Shown here: one piece after another, positions 6,233 to 41,855 of the stretch
Position numbering within the stretch: position 1 is the stretch's first letter
Layout: each line of letters opens with the position of its first letter
NCBI GenBank assembly: GCA_002773535.1
Contig: PFAZ01000009.1
Location: forward strand, 100,739 to 155,818
DNA length: 55,080 nucleotides
Source: Candidatus Harrisonbacteria bacterium CG10_big_fil_rev_8_21_14_0_10_40_38
GTDB taxonomy: Bacteria > Patescibacteriota > Minisyncoccia > UBA6257 > 1-14-0-10-40-38
Direction: 5' to 3'
Notes under the pieces: model-generated
Told to the model about the DNA's origin: nothing
The model's database searches: none
Seen by the model: only the letters and a program-made list of their open reading frames with translations
Made by a program: the position numbers and the translations under genes

Positions 6233-6904
6233 TTACTTTAAAATCACAAGTTTTAATTGCTTGTTCACTGATTCTGTAGAGTTTTTACTATTTTTTGCTA
6301 CAACGTAAGTTAATAATTGAGATTTGTTTATTAAATTACTAGTATTAGTAATAAGCGTAGTTTGATCTTTTGGTGATCCTTCGGCTTTTATGCCATTTAC
6401 TGACCAATTGATTATTAATTCATTTGGATTATTGATTGTGAAAAAATAAGGAATTGCTTTGAAAATAATCTGATTTGGTTGTATTTCGGGGAAAATATAA
6501 ATTTCTGGGTTAGTGGTCGGTATATTTATAGTTTTATTTAAATCGGCTCCTCTATAATTCATTATTTCAGCTCTTATGTTTTGATCGCTTTTTGCAGTTG
6601 TGGTTATGGTTACTTTACCCTTTCCTTTTCCAATCAAATTTATTCCGTCATACCAACGGATTTCATTGTTTGTTAAATTTGCAAATCTTCCACTATCTAA
6701 AAGTCCTACCACTAATGTTATTTCAGATCCTTGTATTGGTAGGGCTTTGCCTTCGTAAGTGGGCGGAATATAAGAATTTGCTTTCCATGTAATAAATAAT
6801 TCTGGTCCTGTTTGGGCTTTTGTTGTTTGGGCAACAAAAGTAATTACTGTAAATATAAATACGAGCAGGGCGATTTTGTTAAGATTTTTATAAATAAATG
6901 TCAT
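6233..6904 (-). CDS. Secreted hypothetical protein, beta-rich (Ig-like?)
   Basis: Signal peptide (KAQ-T), ITWKANSYIPPTYEGKALP; 1-bp spacing to neighbours. Confidence 0.55.
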   Translation of the reverse strand: MTFIYKNLNKIALLVFIFTVITFVAQTTKAQTGPELFITWKANSYIPPTYEGKALPIQGSEITLVVGLLDSGRFANLTNNEIRWYDGINLIGKGKGKVTITTTAKSDQNIRAEIMNYRGADLNKTINIPTTNPEIYIFPEIQPNQIIFKAIPYFFTINNPNELIINWSVNGIKAEGSPKDQTTLITNTSNLINKSQLLTYVVAKNSKNSTESVNKQLKLVILK

Positions 6905-7192
6905 TTAAACTTCGTTTATGATCTTCGCTTTTTTATTAGCTACTACAATTGTCATGATAACACCTGCGGTTACGCTGGGTAGCGCGCTTACAATAGGGAT
7001 TAAATCTATTAGATTTCCTGCCAAGCTCCATCTGCTTTTTACTCCTTTCATTTTAAAATAAAGCTGAAATCCTAACAATGATGCAGGAGCTGTTAGTAGG
7101 TTTATAACCGGAATCCAATTTATTGCATCTACTATAAGTGCGGCACAAACGAGGAGGTATGTTTCTATCGTTGAAAATTTTTTGTCACCCAT
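6905..7192 (-). CDS. Small integral membrane protein of the T4SS-like operon
   Basis: 95 aa, hydrophobic, IPVINLL and LIPIVSALP motifs; tightly coupled. Confidence 0.6.
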   Translation of the reverse strand: MGDKKFSTIETYLLVCAALIVDAINWIPVINLLTAPASLLGFQLYFKMKGVKSRWSLAGNLIDLIPIVSALPSVTAGVIMTIVVANKKAKIINEV

Positions 7193-7197
7193 TATTT

Positions 7198-8904
7198 TTA
7201 CTCGGATGATTTTTCTAATATTTGTTCCGGTTTTGTGGTTATTATTTTATCTTCAAGATATGAAGCAACTACTTGTATTGCTACGCGATTGAGTCCTGCA
7301 AAAAATAACCCTTGACCAACTTCTGATTCTAAGAGGAGGTTTTTTTCTCCGTCTGTGAGATTAAAGGTTTTTGCGACGACTTCGATTGTGGCGGGGGATT
7401 GCTTTAATAAAAGTTGAAGAGCGGAGTTTGTAATAATAGGGCGTCCGTAGGGTGATCTCATAAAGTCCTCAACGTCTTGGGTTATTGTTGTGACGCCGAG
7501 ATAATATTTTCTAGCTCTTTTTACCAAGCCGAATAAAAATGATGCTCCGTCTTCATATTTCATCATCCACCAAGCCTCATCAATTATCATCATTCTCTTT
7601 TTAAGATCAGCTCTAACAAGATTCCAGATGAAGTTAAGGACGATGTACATAGCTATGGGGCGAAGCTCGTCTTCGAGGTCTCTAATAGAAAAAACAATCA
7701 TTCTGTTTTTAATATCAACGTTTGTTGGGCTATTTAAAAACCCTGAATAACTTCCTTTTGTGTATTTGTATAATCTTTCGGCAAGACCGCGCCCACCCTC
7801 CATATTTCTTAGAACGGCTTCTAAATCTTGTAGTGTTGGTGGCTCAATATTGGAAAAATCTCTTCCGGGGACTATTTCTCTTGATGCGTAAGTTTCTGTT
7901 ACGGCTCTGTCTAAGAGGGATTCCTCGTCGACAGTCATCTTTCCCAACATAATCTTTAAAAGGCCTGTGAGTGTGATTACGTGTGAACGGAGGACATCGT
8001 TGGGGTCTTCTCCTTTTGGAATGATTGGCACATCAAATGGATTGATATGATTTCCGGATGATAGTGAGATTCTAAAAAAACTTCCACCAACGGCTTCTGC
8101 TAGTTTTTCGTATTCGTTTTCCGGATCAATGATTAAAATATCTACTCCCATCATAAGGAGACGAATGGCTTCGAGTTTTGTGGCATATGATTTACCAGAT
8201 CCGGATCTTGCAAAAATCGCCATATTATAATTTTCAAGCGAAAATCTATCGAAGATTATAAGAGAGTTATTATGCCTGTTTACGCCATATAAAATTCCAT
8301 TATCTGAAGTTAAGTCTACTGAAGCGAACGGGAAAAATGATGACAATGGACTTGAATTTAGAGGTGTAAGAACTTTTAATTTGTCGACTCCAACGGGAAG
8401 GGTTGATGAAAAACCATCGACTTGTTGGAAAAGCGCTGTTTTTGCGTATACTAATCTACTCTCTAGAAGTGTGGTTATTTCTGTTTCGGCGTCTGTTAGA
8501 GATTTAACGTCGTCTCCATATATTGTGATATACACACCGACCGAAAACATGTTTTCTTGCGCCTGTTGAAGGGAGTTCCTTAAGTTTTCAATGTCTTCTA
8601 TTGCGGTTTCTAACTCCGGGCTTCTAACTAACCCTTTTTCATTATTTTCATTTATTTGCGCTTCTACTTGTGCGGCTTTTTTCCGTAAATTTTTTAAAGC
8701 CATAGGGGTTTCGATCGGGTTTATATAAATAGAAATATCTAAGAGTTTAGGCATGTTAATAATGGGAGAGAACCATCCGGTTGATAGATATCTTGGATAG
8801 GTGAATATAAAAAATGTTTTTGCAAGTTTGTCGCCCAAACGTATGTAGTTTGCGGTTACTTCGATAGCTGCAGGAGCTATTATGTCTTGAATTTCTTTTT
8901 TCAT
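7198..8904 (-). CDS. VirB4/TraC-like secretion ATPase
   Basis: Walker A ARSGSGKS, IIDPENEY, Walker B IIDEAW, RARKY, TITQDVEDF, LLLKQ. Confidence 0.9.
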   Translation of the reverse strand: MKKEIQDIIAPAAIEVTANYIRLGDKLAKTFFIFTYPRYLSTGWFSPIINMPKLLDISIYINPIETPMALKNLRKKAAQVEAQINENNEKGLVRSPELETAIEDIENLRNSLQQAQENMFSVGVYITIYGDDVKSLTDAETEITTLLESRLVYAKTALFQQVDGFSSTLPVGVDKLKVLTPLNSSPLSSFFPFASVDLTSDNGILYGVNRHNNSLIIFDRFSLENYNMAIFARSGSGKSYATKLEAIRLLMMGVDILIIDPENEYEKLAEAVGGSFFRISLSSGNHINPFDVPIIPKGEDPNDVLRSHVITLTGLLKIMLGKMTVDEESLLDRAVTETYASREIVPGRDFSNIEPPTLQDLEAVLRNMEGGRGLAERLYKYTKGSYSGFLNSPTNVDIKNRMIVFSIRDLEDELRPIAMYIVLNFIWNLVRADLKKRMMIIDEAWWMMKYEDGASFLFGLVKRARKYYLGVTTITQDVEDFMRSPYGRPIITNSALQLLLKQSPATIEVVAKTFNLTDGEKNLLLESEVGQGLFFAGLNRVAIQVVASYLEDKIITTKPEQILEKSSE

Positions 8905-9608
8905 TATTCGTTTTCTATAGCATTTCTTCTTTCGACGACACTTGGGTTGTATAGATTATAAAAAAGGTCTAAAAGCTCGTCACCGTTTAGTGATACCGCT
9001 CTTAGCCCTATTTGATTTAAACCGCTTACCACCTGATCTACCCGGTGAGTTATTTGTTCTATATGGCGAGAAAGTTGTTTTTCATCGCTTTCGCCTGATT
9101 CTGGTAGTCTTTCGGTTGGTTTTCCTATTCCTTTCTTTTTAAGAACTCCGAAAATCTTGTCAGTTATTGCTTCTCCGCCTCCTGATAACTGAATTGGGTC
9201 ATAGGGGACAACTACGAAGTAGTTTTTAGCCATAATGGCATTTTCGCCGACAAATGATTTAATAAATTCACGGTATTCGGATATTTGATTTTTTAGAAGC
9301 CCATTTTCTTCTTCGGATTCTCGTAAAACCAGTCTCTCTAAATAATTATCAACGTTTAGTTTTCTTGAGTGTATAAAAATCTGGATAGAAAAATCGAGGG
9401 AGTTTAAAAAACTTTGAAAGGATCCGATAATCATTTCCTGTTCATCTTCTGATTTGAGGTCAAAATTTATACCGGAGATCATCAGAATTTGGCGAAGGCC
9501 TCCGCTTTTTAAGAGAAGGGTGTTTCCCTGAACGCCTTTGATTTCGATAAATTTTTGAGAAGGAAGAGCACCTCCTTTATCTGGCATTTTTTCTTTTGTT
9601 TCGGCCAT
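8904..9608 (-). CDS. Hypothetical protein resembling a VirB4/TraC N-terminal module
   Basis: INFDLKSEDEQE, FLNSLDFSIQIFIHSRKLN; stop overlaps the ATPase start (TAATG). Confidence 0.6.
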   Translation of the reverse strand: MAETKEKMPDKGGALPSQKFIEIKGVQGNTLLLKSGGLRQILMISGINFDLKSEDEQEMIIGSFQSFLNSLDFSIQIFIHSRKLNVDNYLERLVLRESEEENGLLKNQISEYREFIKSFVGENAIMAKNYFVVVPYDPIQLSGGGEAITDKIFGVLKKKGIGKPTERLPESGESDEKQLSRHIEQITHRVDQVVSGLNQIGLRAVSLNGDELLDLFYNLYNPSVVERRNAIENE

Positions 9609-36719: not shown

Positions 36720-38330
36720 ATGATAAAGAGAATTGAAGAGATAATAAAAAAAGCTGTAGGCGAAGATGCTGTCTTTACAGTTGAGGTTCCGCCGGATCAA
36801 AAGATGGGCGACTACATGACAAACGTTGCTCTTCGGGTTGCTTCGACTTTGAAAAAATCTCCCGAAGAAGCGGCTAGGGAAATTGCAGAGAAAATAATAA
36901 AGGCAGATAAGGGAAAAATGTTTTCGGATGTTTCTGTTGCCGGTCCAGGGTTTATAAACTTTTTTGTTAACCCAAAGTTTTTTTATGAGGAACTTTCTGA
37001 AATGTTACGGATGGGAGACGAGTATGGTGGAAGCGATGAGGGAAATGGAAAAAAAGTGAGAATTGAGTATGTTTCCGCGAACCCAACTGGGCCAATACAT
37101 ATAGGCAATCTTCGTGGAGGCCCGATAGGTGAGACTTTGGCAAGGGTTTTTGAAAAGAGCGGGTTTAAGGTGCTTCGAGAATACGTGCACAATGACGCGG
37201 GAACACAAGTTGAAAAACTTGGTGAGACTTTGTGGTATTGGTATGAAAAGTTAAGAGGAAATGAAGCTTCGTTTCCTGATGGCGGATATAGGGGAGATTA
37301 TGGCAAAGAGGTGGCGGAAGCAGTTGCGGAAGCTCTGGGGCCAAACCTTGAGAAATCTCAAATATCTGAAATTATCGCGTTTGGGTTAAATCATATATTT
37401 GAAGAGAATAAAGAAACATTAAAAAGAATTGGGATTACTTTTGATAAGATAGTTTCCGAGAGTAATTTGATTTCTTCCGGAGCGACAGAGGAGGTGGTTT
37501 CTGAAATGAAGTCTCTCAATGTTACCAAGGAAAGAGATGGCGCGCTTTGGTTTGTTCCTAATGATGAATTTTTGTCTGATAGGGAGAGTGTGATTGTGAG
37601 GAGCTCCGGTCAGCCGACGTATTTTGCTTCTGATATTGCGTACCATAAGGAAAAATTTACTTCTGGGTATGATCTGGTTTTTGATATATTTGGAAGCAAT
37701 CACCATGGCCATGCGCCAAAACTTCAGGCGCTTACAAAACTTTTTGGATTTAATCCTCAAAATTTTATCGTCCTTTTGTATCAATATGTTCGAATAAAGA
37801 GAGGCGATGAGGCGGTGACGATGTCTAAGAGAGCTGGAACATATGTGACCGCAAAAGAAGTTTTAGATGAGGTGGGGCCTGACAATGTGATTTTCTTTTT
37901 ACTGATGCATTCTCTGACAACACATATAGACTTTGATCTTGATCTCGCAAAAAAGAAGTCGCTCGAAAACCCTGTTTACTATGTGCAGTATGCTTATGTA
38001 AGGGCGAAGAGGATATTAGAGGAGTCGGGAATGGAACCTATGGTTTCTGATCTCTCACTTTTAAACACGCAACCTGAACTTGCGCTTATCAAAAAACTTT
38101 CGAATTTTCCTGAAGTGGTTTCGATGGTTTGTAAAACTTATGAGGTTCACAGGATAACGCATTATGCTACAGAGCTAGCGAGGGAATTTCATTCATTTTA
38201 TGAAAAGACGAGGGTTTTGGTAGACGATAAAGATTTGTCTATGGCAAGACTTAACCTAGTGAGGTCGGTTGTGATAGTTTTAGCCAATACACTAAACTTG
38301 ATTGGAGTATCAAAACCAGAAAGTATGTAA
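36720..38330 (+). CDS. argS: Arginyl-tRNA synthetase
   Basis: EYVSANPTGPIHIGN, TYFASDIAYH, MSKRAG, YVQYAY. Confidence 0.98.
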   Translation: MIKRIEEIIKKAVGEDAVFTVEVPPDQKMGDYMTNVALRVASTLKKSPEEAAREIAEKIIKADKGKMFSDVSVAGPGFINFFVNPKFFYEELSEMLRMGDEYGGSDEGNGKKVRIEYVSANPTGPIHIGNLRGGPIGETLARVFEKSGFKVLREYVHNDAGTQVEKLGETLWYWYEKLRGNEASFPDGGYRGDYGKEVAEAVAEALGPNLEKSQISEIIAFGLNHIFEENKETLKRIGITFDKIVSESNLISSGATEEVVSEMKSLNVTKERDGALWFVPNDEFLSDRESVIVRSSGQPTYFASDIAYHKEKFTSGYDLVFDIFGSNHHGHAPKLQALTKLFGFNPQNFIVLLYQYVRIKRGDEAVTMSKRAGTYVTAKEVLDEVGPDNVIFFLLMHSLTTHIDFDLDLAKKKSLENPVYYVQYAYVRAKRILEESGMEPMVSDLSLLNTQPELALIKKLSNFPEVVSMVCKTYEVHRITHYATELAREFHSFYEKTRVLVDDKDLSMARLNLVRSVVIVLANTLNLIGVSKPESM

Positions 38331-38333
38331 TTT

Positions 38334-41300
38334 ATGCTTAGAGATATCAAACAATTTTTTTTGCCGGAAATAGAAGAAAAGGTTCTTTCTTATTGGAAGG
38401 AGAACCAGATTTTTGAAAAATCGGTAAATAAAAAAAGATCTAAAACTTTTGTTTTTTATGAGGGTCCGCCTACTGCAAATGGTAAGCCGGGGATTCATCA
38501 TGTGCTTGCGAGGAGTTTTAAGGATATCGTATTGCGATACAAAACGATGAGAGGGTACTCGGTTCCGCGAAGAGCCGGGTGGGATACTCATGGGTTGCCT
38601 GTCGAGATAGCTGTAGAGAAAGAGCTTGGACTAAAATCGAAAAAAGAAATCGAAACCTATGGGGTGGCTGAGTTTAATAAGAAGTGCAAGGAATCGGTTT
38701 GGAAATATAAAGAAGACTGGGAGAGGCTGACCGAAAGAATCGGGTTTTGGCTAGATATGAAAAACCCATATATCACTTATGAGGCTTCTTATATGGAAAC
38801 TCTGTGGTGGATTTTGCAAAGCGCCTGGAAAAAGAAGCTACTTTATAAAGGGCATAGGATAGTGCCGTGGTGCACAAGATGCGGGACAGCTTTGTCTTCA
38901 CATGAGTTGGCGCAAGGGTATCACGAAGTGACTGATACTTCGGTGTATGTGAAATTTAGAATTAAGAATAATGAATTAAGAATTAAGGGGCATGGTTTGC
39001 CGGTTTATATATTATCGTGGACGACGACACCTTGGACGCTGCCGGGTAACGTTGCTCTAGCTGTAGGGGAAGATATTGATTATGTTGCGATTCAGAAAGA
39101 TGGTGAGATTTTAATCGCTGCAAAAGAATCTCCTTTGGGTAAAGAAGTAAGCGAGTCGGGGGAGGTAAAAGAAAATCTAAAAGGGAAAGACTTAATCGGA
39201 TTGGAATATGAGTCGCTTTTTGAAGTACCTTTTCTTAAAGGTGAAAAATCTTATCGTGTTTATGCTGCTGACTTTGTGACAACGACTGATGGAACGGGTG
39301 TGGTTCATACGGCTGTGATGTATGGGGAAGATGACTATAAGCTTGGTTCTCAAATCGGATTGCCCCAAGCTCACACAGTTGATGAAGAGGGAAGATTTGT
39401 TTCGCAAGTTGGGGAACTAAAACACATGTACGCAAAAGCTCCTGAAACAGAGTCAAAAATAATCGAGCTTCTTTCGGGGAGAGGATTTTTGCTTAAAAAA
39501 CAGCCGTATACTCACGAATATCCTTTTTGTTGGAGATGCGATACACCACTTCTCTACTACGCGAGAGAATCGTGGTTTATAAGGATGAGTTCTCTTCGGG
39601 ATAAGCTCATAGAAAAGAATAAAAATATTTCTTGGACTCCAGAACATCTTCAGGAAGGAAGGTTTGGGGAGTGGCTCCGTGAAGTAAAGGATTGGAATCT
39701 TTCACGCGAGAGATTTTGGGGGACGCCGCTTCCTGTGTGGGAGTGTTCTTCGTGTGGTGAGACTGAAGTTATAGGCGGAGTTTCTGATTTAAAGAAAAAG
39801 GGAATTGTTCCGAATGAATTTTTCTTTATAAGGCATGGGGAGTCTGATCACAATGTAAAAAGATTTACCGGCCCTGCTGATGATTCGGAGGGACATGCGT
39901 CAAACCTAACAGAGAAGGGACGTGAACAGGTTGCGAGAGCTGCAAGGTCACTGCGGTCAAAGAAAATTGATATCATCATTACTTCGCCTTTAAAAAGAGC
40001 TAAGGAGACGGCAGAGATTGTCGGGTTTTATACTGGCGCGCGCATAATAACAAGCGAGCTTATACGGGAGATAAACCCCGGATCTTTTGTTGGAAAAACA
40101 ATTGCGGAGCATAATGCGTTTTTTAAAAATCGTCTTGATAGATTTAATATAGCGCCTGAAGGAGGTGAGACGTGGCGTGAGGTGATGAGGAGACTCGCAA
40201 AGTTTGTAAAAGAAGTTCAAGAAAATCATCCAGGAAAGAAAATCGTTGTTGTAAGTCACGGCGACCCTTTATGGATTTTAAAGGGTATGTACGAGGCAAA
40301 ATCGAAGGAGGATTTTTTGTCCGTGACTTATCCGAAAGTCGGAAAAATTTATCCTATTTCTGTTTCTGCTGTGCCATTTAACACAGATGGCGAAGTTGAT
40401 ATTCATAAGCCATTTATCGACAGCGTTCTTTTGAAGTGTCCGAAGTGTTCGGATTCTATGAGGAGAGTTAAAGAAATAATTGATGTTTGGTTTGATTCGG
40501 GTGGTATGCCTTTTGCTCAAGCGCATTTTCCTTTTAGTAAAAAACTAAAACTTAAAGGGGGATCTGAATTTAAATTTGTTTATCCTGCTGATTATATCTG
40601 TGAGGCGGTTGATCAGACTCGAGGATGGTTTTACACACTACTTGCTGAAGCTGTTGTTTTAGGAAAACCTGCGCCGTATAAGAATGTGATTTCTTTGGGT
40701 CATGTTCTTGATAAGAATGGGCAGAAGATGTCCAAGTCGAAAGGAAATGTTATTGATCCATGGGATGCGGCAGATAGGCACGGAGTTGATGTAATTAGGT
40801 GGTATTTTTATACGGTTAATGACCCCGGTGAGCCGAAGAGATTTAATGAGGCTGATGTTATGAAGACTTATAGAAGTTTTCATCTTCTTGCTTATAACTC
40901 ATATTCGTTTTTGAGAACTTATCTGTCGCCATCTGTTTCTAAAACCGATCCGAAAAAATCTCCAAATATTTTGGATAAATGGATTCTTGTTCTGTGGAAT
41001 GAAACAATCACTTCTGTTACAGCTTCTCTTGAAAAGTATCAGATAGGTACTGCGGCAAAGGCGTTGGATTCTTTTCTTGGTGATTTATCACGTTGGTACA
41101 TAAGGCGTTCGAGAAAGAGGTTTTCTGATTCTTCGAGTGAGGACTTTGCTTTTGCTGCTGCGACTTTAACGTTTGTGCTTCGAGATTTTTCAAAGGCGCT
41201 TGCTCCGTTCTGTCCGTTTATTTCTGAGGCGATTTATAAGTCGATTATCAATGGAGCAAAAGAAAAAGGGGAGTTGTCGGTTCATCTTGAGGATTGGCCT

Positions 41301-41855
41301 AAATTTTCTGAACTAAAACGCAAACCTTCTGTAATTTCTGAAATGGAAGAGGTTCGCAATATTGCCAACTTGGCTTTAGCTGCGAGAACAACCGCAGGGA
41401 TAAAAGTTAAGCAGCCGCTCGCTGCATTAGTAGTTAAGAATCAGAATTCGAAAATAAAAGGTAATCAGGATTTGATCGATGTTCTTAAAGACGAGGTTAA
41501 CGTGAAAGAAGTAGTTTTTAATTCTTCTATCACGGAGGAGGTGGAGCTTGATACAAATATCACCCCTGAACTTTATGAAGAGGGCATGATAAGAGAGCTT
41601 ACAAGACTTGTGCAGCAGGTAAGGCAGGATGCGAAATATAAAGTGACGGATATAATTAATCTTTCTTTGTTCGTGTATCCAGAATTAAAAACTGTGATAC
41701 AGAAACACATGGAGACTTTTAAGAAGACTGTTAAAGCAAAAGATATTGACATGAGACAGTTTGAGGAAGAAAGACGTGGAGGTGTGTTTGATGCAGAAGT
41801 GGAAACGGAATTTGAGGGGAAAAAAATATCGGTTGCCGTGAGAAAGATTTCATAA
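38334..41855 (+). CDS. ileS: Isoleucyl-tRNA synthetase type 2 with inserted histidine-phosphatase domain
   Basis: GPPTANG, WDTHGLPVE, WTTTPWTLP, DWNLSRERFWG, EAVDQTRGWF, KMSKS. Confidence 0.97.
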   Translation: MLRDIKQFFLPEIEEKVLSYWKENQIFEKSVNKKRSKTFVFYEGPPTANGKPGIHHVLARSFKDIVLRYKTMRGYSVPRRAGWDTHGLPVEIAVEKELGLKSKKEIETYGVAEFNKKCKESVWKYKEDWERLTERIGFWLDMKNPYITYEASYMETLWWILQSAWKKKLLYKGHRIVPWCTRCGTALSSHELAQGYHEVTDTSVYVKFRIKNNELRIKGHGLPVYILSWTTTPWTLPGNVALAVGEDIDYVAIQKDGEILIAAKESPLGKEVSESGEVKENLKGKDLIGLEYESLFEVPFLKGEKSYRVYAADFVTTTDGTGVVHTAVMYGEDDYKLGSQIGLPQAHTVDEEGRFVSQVGELKHMYAKAPETESKIIELLSGRGFLLKKQPYTHEYPFCWRCDTPLLYYARESWFIRMSSLRDKLIEKNKNISWTPEHLQEGRFGEWLREVKDWNLSRERFWGTPLPVWECSSCGETEVIGGVSDLKKKGIVPNEFFFIRHGESDHNVKRFTGPADDSEGHASNLTEKGREQVARAARSLRSKKIDIIITSPLKRAKETAEIVGFYTGARIITSELIREINPGSFVGKTIAEHNAFFKNRLDRFNIAPEGGETWREVMRRLAKFVKEVQENHPGKKIVVVSHGDPLWILKGMYEAKSKEDFLSVTYPKVGKIYPISVSAVPFNTDGEVDIHKPFIDSVLLKCPKCSDSMRRVKEIIDVWFDSGGMPFAQAHFPFSKKLKLKGGSEFKFVYPADYICEAVDQTRGWFYTLLAEAVVLGKPAPYKNVISLGHVLDKNGQKMSKSKGNVIDPWDAADRHGVDVIRWYFYTVNDPGEPKRFNEADVMKTYRSFHLLAYNSYSFLRTYLSPSVSKTDPKKSPNILDKWILVLWNETITSVTASLEKYQIGTAAKALDSFLGDLSRWYIRRSRKRFSDSSSEDFAFAAATLTFVLRDFSKALAPFCPFISEAIYKSIINGAKEKGELSVHLEDWPKFSELKRKPSVISEMEEVRNIANLALAARTTAGIKVKQPLAALVVKNQNSKIKGNQDLIDVLKDEVNVKEVVFNSSITEEVELDTNITPELYEEGMIRELTRLVQQVRQDAKYKVTDIINLSLFVYPELKTVIQKHMETFKKTVKAKDIDMRQFEEERRGGVFDAEVETEFEGKKISVAVRKIS

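Follow-up and report, generated by a model that had tools for sequence, protein, structure and literature searches.

Few enzymes have been studied as thoroughly as the aminoacyl-tRNA synthetases, and the add-ons of the prokaryotic ones are usually thought to serve tRNA binding or editing only. Isoleucyl-tRNA synthetases (IleRS) of type 2, such as those of Priestia megaterium (8C8V) and Thermus thermophilus (1ILE), have a common fold with a CP1 editing domain, a KMSKS loop and a C-terminal DUF5915 region. Branch-1 histidine phosphatases (HP), such as PhoE/YhfR of Geobacillus stearothermophilus (1H2E, 1EBB), which is a broad-specificity phosphatase, the phosphoserine phosphatase PspA (4IJ5/4IJ6) and the glucosyl-3-phosphoglycerate phosphatase GpgP (Rv2419c; 4PZ9/4QIH), are free-standing, metabolic enzymes of about 190–210 aa. 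In a 55,080 nt stretch of DNA from the ultra-small Candidatus Harrisonbacteria bacterium CG10_big_fil_rev_8_21_14_0_10_40_38 (contig PFAZ01000009.1, positions 100,739 – 155,818; class Minisyncoccia of the Patescibacteriota), hereafter the window, both are encoded by a single gene. This gene, ileS, specifies the housekeeping, editing-competent type-2 IleRS of the cell, and nested within it is a PhoE-like phosphatase. An intact, independent hydrolase thus sits within the catalytic core of the sole IleRS, an arrangement found in most species of a very large bacterial class. Literature searches found no paper describing phosphatase-bearing aminoacyl-tRNA synthetases, and neither 'phosphatase' nor 'Patescibacteria' occurs in the text of a 2026 survey of 97,678 IleRS sequences; the partnership is conserved, real and, seemingly, previously unpublished. 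On the practical side, large IleRS surveys are silent on such proteins, and their only annotation is 'class I tRNA ligase family protein'.

The nearest evolutionary analogy, in pattern only, is the CAAD domain of cyanobacterial synthetases (ValRS, IleRS, LeuRS, GluRS, ArgRS, MetRS, CysRS), a non-enzymatic membrane anchor that class I enzymes have acquired repeatedly and independently (PMC4893482). In both cases one accessory domain has been captured repeatedly within one phylum, free-standing homologues exist, and there is more than one insertion site; in contrast to CAAD, the phosphatase is a catalytically intact hydrolase that lies mostly in the catalytic core, and a class II enzyme, AlaRS, is also a host. 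No CAAD-type insertion (CURT1/CAAD membrane domain) was found by Pfam in the IleRS open reading frame (ORF) of the window. Other cases of an IleRS hosting an unrelated small-molecule enzyme domain are the family NF040702 (IleRS with an N-acetyltransferase) and a NUDIX-bearing IleRS found in the current study (L004, see below), although the fold and chemistry of these guests are unlike those of the phosphatase. The IleRS of the window falls short of the NF040702 (ileS_w_GNAT) cut-off (315 vs 1999 bits), and Pfam shows no GNAT domain in it. The best NCBIfam match of the insert, NF005567 (RNase H/acid phosphatase, of the M. tuberculosis Rv2228c type; 98 bits vs a cut-off of 326), also describes a His_Phos_1 domain fused to a nucleic-acid enzyme, but there the two are joined end to end rather than nested, and the protein studied here is not a member.

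The synthetase and its landmarks are placed in the window as follows.

38334..41855, + strand: ileS, type-2 IleRS with nested phosphatase, 1173 aa (TIGR00392, AlphaFold2 model, Foldseek)
38490..38501, + strand: class-I signature in the non-canonical form GXHH (not HXGH), G53-I-H-H56 (sequence, alignment)
39744..39755, + strand: first half of the CP3 zinc knuckle, C471-S-S-C474 (sequence)
40437..40448, + strand: second half of the CP3 zinc knuckle, C702-P-K-C705 (sequence)
40725..40739, + strand: KMSKS loop of the synthetic site, aa 798–802, intact

The ORF scores 866 bits against the ileS equivalog of NCBIfam (TIGR00392, cut-off 621) and is the only one above that cut-off in a profile search of the source genome (760 kb, 99.8% complete). 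With a single IleRS in the genome, it must be the housekeeping enzyme and not a spare copy. In Pfam, tRNA-synt_1 (E 1.6e-113) is split in two by His_Phos_1, after which come Anticodon_1 and DUF5915. The protein is of type 2 by its equivalog score, the GIHH and KMSKS motifs, the editing motif WTTTPWT, the C-terminal DUF5915, and its best structural matches, which are IleRS2 enzymes: the full-length AlphaFold2 model (pLDDT 91.7, pTM 0.86) is closest in Foldseek to 8C8V (E 1e-89) and 1ILE (TMt 0.94). It belongs to the GXHH subclass and has a CP3 zinc knuckle like that of T. thermophilus IleRS, in which the CP3 subdomain carries a zinc-binding motif (PMC7191050), but it differs from both of these structures in about 190 extra residues, which form an independent enzyme domain inside the CP3 hairpin. 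The cut-off of 1900 bits for the mupirocin-resistance types MupA (NF000257) and MupB (NF000258) is not reached (784 and 791 bits), and the relationship to them is that of type-2 IleRS only.

The inserted domain has the following features.

39813..40376, + strand: branch-1 histidine phosphatase insert (His_Phos_1), aa 494–681 (Pfam, model, Foldseek, phmmer)
39831..39836, + strand: R500-H501 of the RHG motif, H501 being the predicted phospho-accepting nucleophile (conservation)
39996..39998, + strand: R555, second phosphate-binding Arg (conservation, alignment to PhoE)
40068..40070, + strand: E579 of REINPG, predicted proton donor (conservation, alignment to PhoE)
40257..40259, + strand: H642 of SHGDP, second catalytic His (conservation)

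A reading made earlier from the sequence alone had proposed a complete histidine-phosphatase domain with all its catalytic motifs, of about 185 aa and lying between the CSSC and CPKC halves of the zinc knuckle, and on each of these points it was right. Pfam places His_Phos_1 (PF00300) at aa 497–654 (E 2.9e-37; 128.7 bits vs a cut-off of 21.7), with RHG starting at nt 39831 (R500-H501-G502), SPLKRA at aa 551–556, REINPG at aa 578–583, and SHG starting at nt 40254 (S641-H642-G643); the DIHKP motif follows at aa 689–693. The estimated size holds for the insert itself, the length of which has an interquartile range of 188–192 aa across homologues, while 227 residues span the distance from C474 to C702. 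Compared with insert-less relatives, the extra segment runs from about aa 491 to 688. It is placed at the tip of the zinc-knuckle hairpin (C471–C474/C702–C705), a surface loop of the catalytic core.

Profile, catalytic core and alpha/beta fold all place the insert in branch 1 of the histidine phosphatase superfamily. The closest solved sequences found by phmmer are PhoE (1EBB and 1H2E, E 4e-15, about 30% identity), then PspA (4IJ5) and GpgP (4PZ9). These share with it the RHG...R...E...H set and a similar cap segment; E579 aligns with the glutamate of 'lrEihlg' in PhoE, and R555 matches R59 of that enzyme by position. The model of the domain (pLDDT 89.7) gives a TMq of 0.85 to PhoE (1H2E) and PspA (4IJ6), with E about 1e-14, and the span across PhoE, PspA, GpgP and CobC is 0.76–0.85; further Foldseek neighbours are 6S2Q, 4QIH, 9MMH and 6E4B. 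Going by the model, all of the top structural neighbours are small-molecule phosphatases, and no SixA-type protein phosphatase occurs among the top 50 Foldseek matches. The insert, which has the full catalytic set, folds in the model as a compact histidine phosphatase of the small-molecule type. What sets it apart from PhoE, PspA and GpgP is the lineage-typical SHGDP after the second His, and that it is nested in, or genetically coupled to, a synthetase. The top NCBIfam matches are all phosphatase or mutase families and all lie under their equivalog cut-offs, including dPGM (TIGR01258, 43.4 vs 81.7; NF038349, 95.5 vs 225), CobC (TIGR03162, 82 vs 163), PspA (NF045917, 80 vs 350), SixA (TIGR00249, 41 vs 74.5) and GpmB (NF002901, 57 vs 261). 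As none of these cut-offs is reached, no substrate can be transferred from them.

Conservation was examined in 113 full-length fusion homologues. Relatives are 40–55% identical and synonymous sites are saturated, and selection was judged by the invariance of catalytic residues against a background identity of 39%. R500, H501, S551, R555, R620 and H642 are invariant in all 113, E612 occurs in 112 of them, and at position 579 the residue is acidic throughout (E in 89, D in 24). Mean pairwise identity is 39% for the insert and 47% for the rest of the protein, and the two are correlated over pairs (r = 0.62), as expected for co-inheritance. The host is likewise well kept, with WTTTPWT in all 113, KMSKS in 95, and GTGxVH conserved. 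By comparison, the four knuckle cysteines occur together in only 70 of the homologues, which indicates that the zinc site, unlike the phosphatase residues, can be dispensed with. Beyond the general possibility, all that could be said for a catalytically dead, merely structural insert is that the hairpin tolerates change, its cysteines being lost in about 30% of homologues; against this stands the fact that the catalytic residues are invariant or conservatively replaced at so low a mean identity.

The companion possibility, an artefact of assembly or annotation, is contradicted by a continuous reading frame, a confident model, and a G+C content of the insert (0.42) that is close to that of the rest of the gene (0.40). 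The identical protein is recorded on three contigs. In a protein search restricted to residues 470–700 of the IleRS, at least 306 protein clusters match, and the best 120 of these all pair PF00133 with PF00300; the named sources of these 120 are Jorgensen-, Brenner-, Colwell-, Specht- and Kaiserbacteria and Paceibacterota. The source class was surveyed with a junction-insert-junction query in 201 evenly sampled species genomes, and in 134 of them a full-span match lies inside a frame of about 1100–1366 aa. Outside the class, the fusion was found in about 22 of some 285 genomes of an even phylum sample. An assembly chimera, which would have refuted the sequence-only reading, is thus ruled out by the three contigs, by hundreds of homologous fusions and by the matching G+C content, and the purifying selection on which that reading also depended is evident in the catalytic residues. 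A dead domain or an artefact is hardly conceivable, and both are excluded here. The observation is confirmed, is far beyond chance and is not peculiar to one assembly: the fusion is ancient, has been inherited vertically and is maintained by purifying selection in about two-thirds of the species of the class.

The link between phosphatase and IleRS is not confined to the CP3 insertion. One family of the class includes four genomes (L007, L008, L009 and L012) in which the IleRS has no insert (909–962 aa) and a phosphatase gene of 181–189 aa lies directly upstream of ileS, the two genes overlapping by four or seven bases or being separated by a one-base gap.

L007, 5955..6509 / 6506..9310: phosphatase gene / ileS
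L008, 6040..6606 / 6600..9488: phosphatase gene / ileS
L009, 5981..6550 / 6552..9347: phosphatase gene / ileS
L012, 3230..6501, – strand: phosphatase gene and ileS

The phosphatase gene of this family is preceded by argS and a small helix-turn-helix gene; in L007, recO is found downstream of ileS. A second family (L010, L011) has the order argS-HP-(485-aa gene)-ileS, in which the phosphatase gene is about 2 kb upstream of ileS. The window itself shows argS immediately before ileS, and the order argS-(HP)-ileS is kept in relatives with a separate phosphatase gene.

36720..38330, + strand: argS (ArgRS, 536 aa), followed by a 3-bp spacer and then ileS (ORF list and sequence)

In a third family (L005, L006), the phosphatase gene is free and away from ileS. 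In L006 (5976..6945), a gene for a MazG nucleotide pyrophosphohydrolase begins seven bases after it.

Two further IleRS proteins differ in where, or how often, the domain is inserted. That of L016 (1030..4740, + strand), a genome belonging to a different class of the phylum, combines an ordinary short zinc knuckle with a phosphatase at aa 711–851, between the catalytic domain and Anticodon_1. That of L015 (1962..6350, + strand; 1462 aa) has two tandem phosphatase domains at CP3, which differ in phylogenetic origin, and no knuckle cysteines. In maximum-likelihood trees of phosphatase domains, one clade (SH-aLRT 96–99) contains the CP3 inserts, the ileS-adjacent, nearby and free genes, the L016 insert and the first L015 domain. 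Free forms, which have the same catalytic residues, interleave with inserts in this IleRS-type clade. Across hundreds of species, a single phosphatase lineage is therefore tied to IleRS in four layouts, namely within CP3, beside the anticodon-binding domain, overlapping the start of ileS, and about 2 kb upstream of it, and the tie is lineage-specific and independent of insertion.

These layouts bear directly on the idea, put forward in the sequence-only reading, that the phosphatase repairs the ends of tRNA held by the synthetase. Precedents exist, as in E. coli the CCA-adding enzyme has an HD domain that is a phosphatase and 2',3'-cyclic phosphodiesterase acting on tRNA ends, and the toxic RelA-SpoT homologues FaRel2 and CapRel pyrophosphorylate the CCA end of tRNA. 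The known hosts (IleRS and, as described below, ValRS and AlaRS) all bind tRNA, and the CP3 site is within the catalytic core. However, in L016 the same lineage is found beside the anticodon-binding domain, off the catalytic-core site, and in other families it is a free protein. Nor is the insert basic: its mean net charge is about zero per residue, and at that level no basic, RNA-binding-like surface is seen. The closest structures are all small-molecule phosphatases with a capped pocket, and a need for repair of tRNA-Ile and tRNA-Val alone would go unexplained. Because of the varied insertion sites and the free-standing forms, repair of tRNA in cis is less likely than it first appeared, and as an explanation of the fusion it seems rather unlikely.

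Histidine phosphatases have also been captured by other synthetases. Two genomes of the class have a ValRS in which the domain separates the Cys pairs of the homologous knuckle, and one of these genomes also bears the IleRS fusion.

L002, 1475..4246, – strand: ValRS with His_Phos_1, 923 aa
L003, 1660..4419, – strand: ValRS with His_Phos_1, 919 aa

Phosphatase-bearing ValRS form at least 120 protein clusters (Lipton-, Uhr-, Moran-, Wolfe- and Sungiibacteria) and were detected in 3 of 301 genomes of the phylum sample. Their inserts are a clade of their own (SH-aLRT 93–98), which falls among free proteins of the PhoE-like type, outside the IleRS-type clade, indicating a separate capture at an equivalent structural site. 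A third host is the AlaRS of a Saccharibacteria metagenome-assembled genome (L014, 2145..4472, + strand), a class II enzyme of unrelated fold, in which the phosphatase occupies aa 223–403 of the catalytic domain; this fusion is an apparent singleton in the genome collection. The AlaRS junction query also matched over 189 aa in the AlaRS of a Woesearchaeota genome (L021, 3001..3567), where an ordinary AlaRS matches over about 55–65 aa, and in this protein an insert of another kind, about 130 aa long, may occupy the same site. Capture of a histidine phosphatase by synthetases has thus occurred more than once, in IleRS, in ValRS and once in AlaRS. These ValRS and AlaRS captures, the free form next to ileS, the second insertion site in IleRS and the co-insertion of a NUDIX domain all go beyond what had been read from the window.

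The only non-synthetase host found in the class sample is a PGDH-like D-2-hydroxyacid dehydrogenase joined end to end to a His_Phos_1 domain of the dPGM type (L013, 1102..2781, + strand), which is plainly metabolic and an unrelated case. It does show that a metabolic fusion of this kind exists in the class, and so lends some weight to the view that the IleRS insert is a passenger, i.e. a housekeeping phosphatase or mutase (of sugar phosphates, phosphoserine or cofactor biosynthesis) with no link to aminoacylation, merely lodged in an essential and well-expressed gene of a streamlined genome. Metabolic phosphatases are indeed its closest relatives among those characterised, and a profile search of the source genome found the insert to be its sole His_Phos_1 domain. 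Such a passenger would not be expected to show a lineage-specific tie to ileS in four layouts, overlapping genes included, nor would the hosts in the class and phylum samples, L013 apart, all be aminoacyl-tRNA synthetases, with ValRS and AlaRS having captured other phosphatase lineages separately. One metabolic role, that of glycolytic mutase, is moreover already filled by iPGM. Taken together, these points make the passenger view unlikely. With several layouts and separate captures in ValRS and AlaRS, a functional connection between phosphatase and aminoacylation is hard to avoid, although we know of no connection between the two reactions.

Several more specific roles can be compared with the gene content of the source genome. 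The sequence-only reading had considered metabolic moonlighting, and a role as the cell's phosphoglycerate mutase is weakened, and ruled out as a necessity, by the genome's own iPGM (E 1.7e-60), an enzyme present in 160 of the 201 class genomes, most fusion bearers among them. No soluble pyrophosphatase (PPase) was found in the source genome, but a membrane H+-PPase is encoded there (G000:C12:49085-51046). In the class sample, the soluble family-I PPase (45/201) and the membrane H+-PPase (124/201) appear largely complementary, and at least 20 genomes have both the soluble enzyme and the fusion; with an H+-PPase of its own and no exclusive pattern in the class, the insert as a missing pyrophosphatase is ruled out. 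A dead-end pool of AMP as the gap to be filled is likewise ruled out by the presence of adenylate kinase (ADK). Alarmone turnover of the ppGpp type, another of the earlier suggestions, has lost ground because no RelA/SpoT synthetase domain was detected in this 99.8%-complete genome. Nucleotide turnover, which the sequence-only reading had named alongside it, is still a candidate.

A different enzyme domain accompanies the phosphatase in the IleRS of L004 (1181..5278, + strand; 1365 aa), which has a NUDIX domain at aa 220–336 in addition to the phosphatase at aa 648–843. Two further genomes of that family have frames of 1303–1304 aa, in which this architecture is probably repeated. NUDIX, together with the GNAT domain of NF040702, can be cited in favour of an on-board defence, in which the phosphatase would disarm a phosphorylated inhibitor or toxic by-product at the synthetic site of IleRS or ValRS, or would dephosphorylate the synthetase itself, for example by removing a phosphate that a kinase toxin has set on the KMSKS serine. 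Parallels are the detoxification of aminoacyl-nucleotide antibiotics by GNAT or HIT enzymes and, in GltX and TrpS, the phosphorylation of the KMSKS-equivalent loop by HipA-type kinases. The patchy distribution and the repeated, separate captures would suit such a role. In tested IleRS2 enzymes, a swap to GXHH leads to mupirocin hyper-resistance (10.1101/2023.01.31.526100). The signature motif is G/AxHH in 71 of the 113 phosphatase-bearing IleRS, which suggests inhibitor pressure on the active site, but the canonical HxGH is found in 37 of them, so that a strict tie between insert and GXHH motif is ruled out. In addition, SixA-type protein phosphatases are absent from the closest structures, and we know of no phosphorylated inhibitor of IleRS or ValRS and of no IleRS-directed kinase. 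On-board defence in this form is very unlikely.

The explanation that best accommodates these observations is that the phosphatase is probably a dedicated, functional partner of IleRS with a small substrate of the nucleotide type. From its sequence, the domain is predicted to be an active phosphomonoesterase working via a phospho-H501 intermediate. It would be held close to IleRS at 1:1 stoichiometry as a partner rather than as a passenger. Its substrate would most likely be a small, diffusible phosphomonoester of the aminoacylation cycle, since three attachment geometries and a free state are tolerated and small-molecule enzymes are its structural neighbours; a tRNA-borne phosphate in the same complex would be a less likely target. 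Candidate substrates are AMP or another nucleoside monophosphate, a 2'- or 3'-phosphorylated nucleotide, and a phosphorylated by-product or inhibitor of the synthetic site, and any particular one of these, taken singly, is distinctly less likely than the general statement and should be regarded as improbable. The enzyme would be neither the phosphoglycerate mutase nor the general pyrophosphatase of the cell, and would not serve ppGpp turnover. The NUDIX-plus-phosphatase IleRS of L004 and the MazG gene beside the free phosphatase of L006 hint weakly at nucleotides.

Several points weigh against a dedicated partner with a small nucleotide-type substrate. The NUDIX and MazG associations are single observations, and a hairpin that is structurally permissive, instead of function, could in part account for the preference for IleRS and ValRS. 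About a quarter of the class genomes are without any IleRS-type phosphatase, which implies that the function is accessory. A small-molecule substrate by itself also leaves unexplained why IleRS, rather than some other adenylate-forming enzyme, is the partner. Finally, no substrate can be read from the sequence, and the activity is itself a prediction.

A different view is that a phosphatase step has been built into tRNA charging in the Patescibacteria, with the enzyme, whether nested in IleRS or co-translated with it, acting as a repair or defence module on a macromolecular or active-site-bound substrate. This is possible, although doubtful. Its substrates might, with similar reserve, be a blocking phosphate or pyrophosphate at the tRNA acceptor end, a phosphate that a toxin kinase has put on the synthetase, or a phosphorylated inhibitor in the synthetic site. 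It is also conceivable, and again tentative, that the ValRS and AlaRS lineages do the same, and that the NUDIX and GNAT domains of IleRS proteins are variations on one theme. The substrate, once found, would reveal either that translation has a further maintenance or defence step or that genome-reduced symbionts couple nucleotide metabolism to protein synthesis in a new way.

One family of the class that lacks the IleRS fusion (G019, G059, G091, G120, G147, G170 and G192) has six to nine His_Phos_1 matches per genome.

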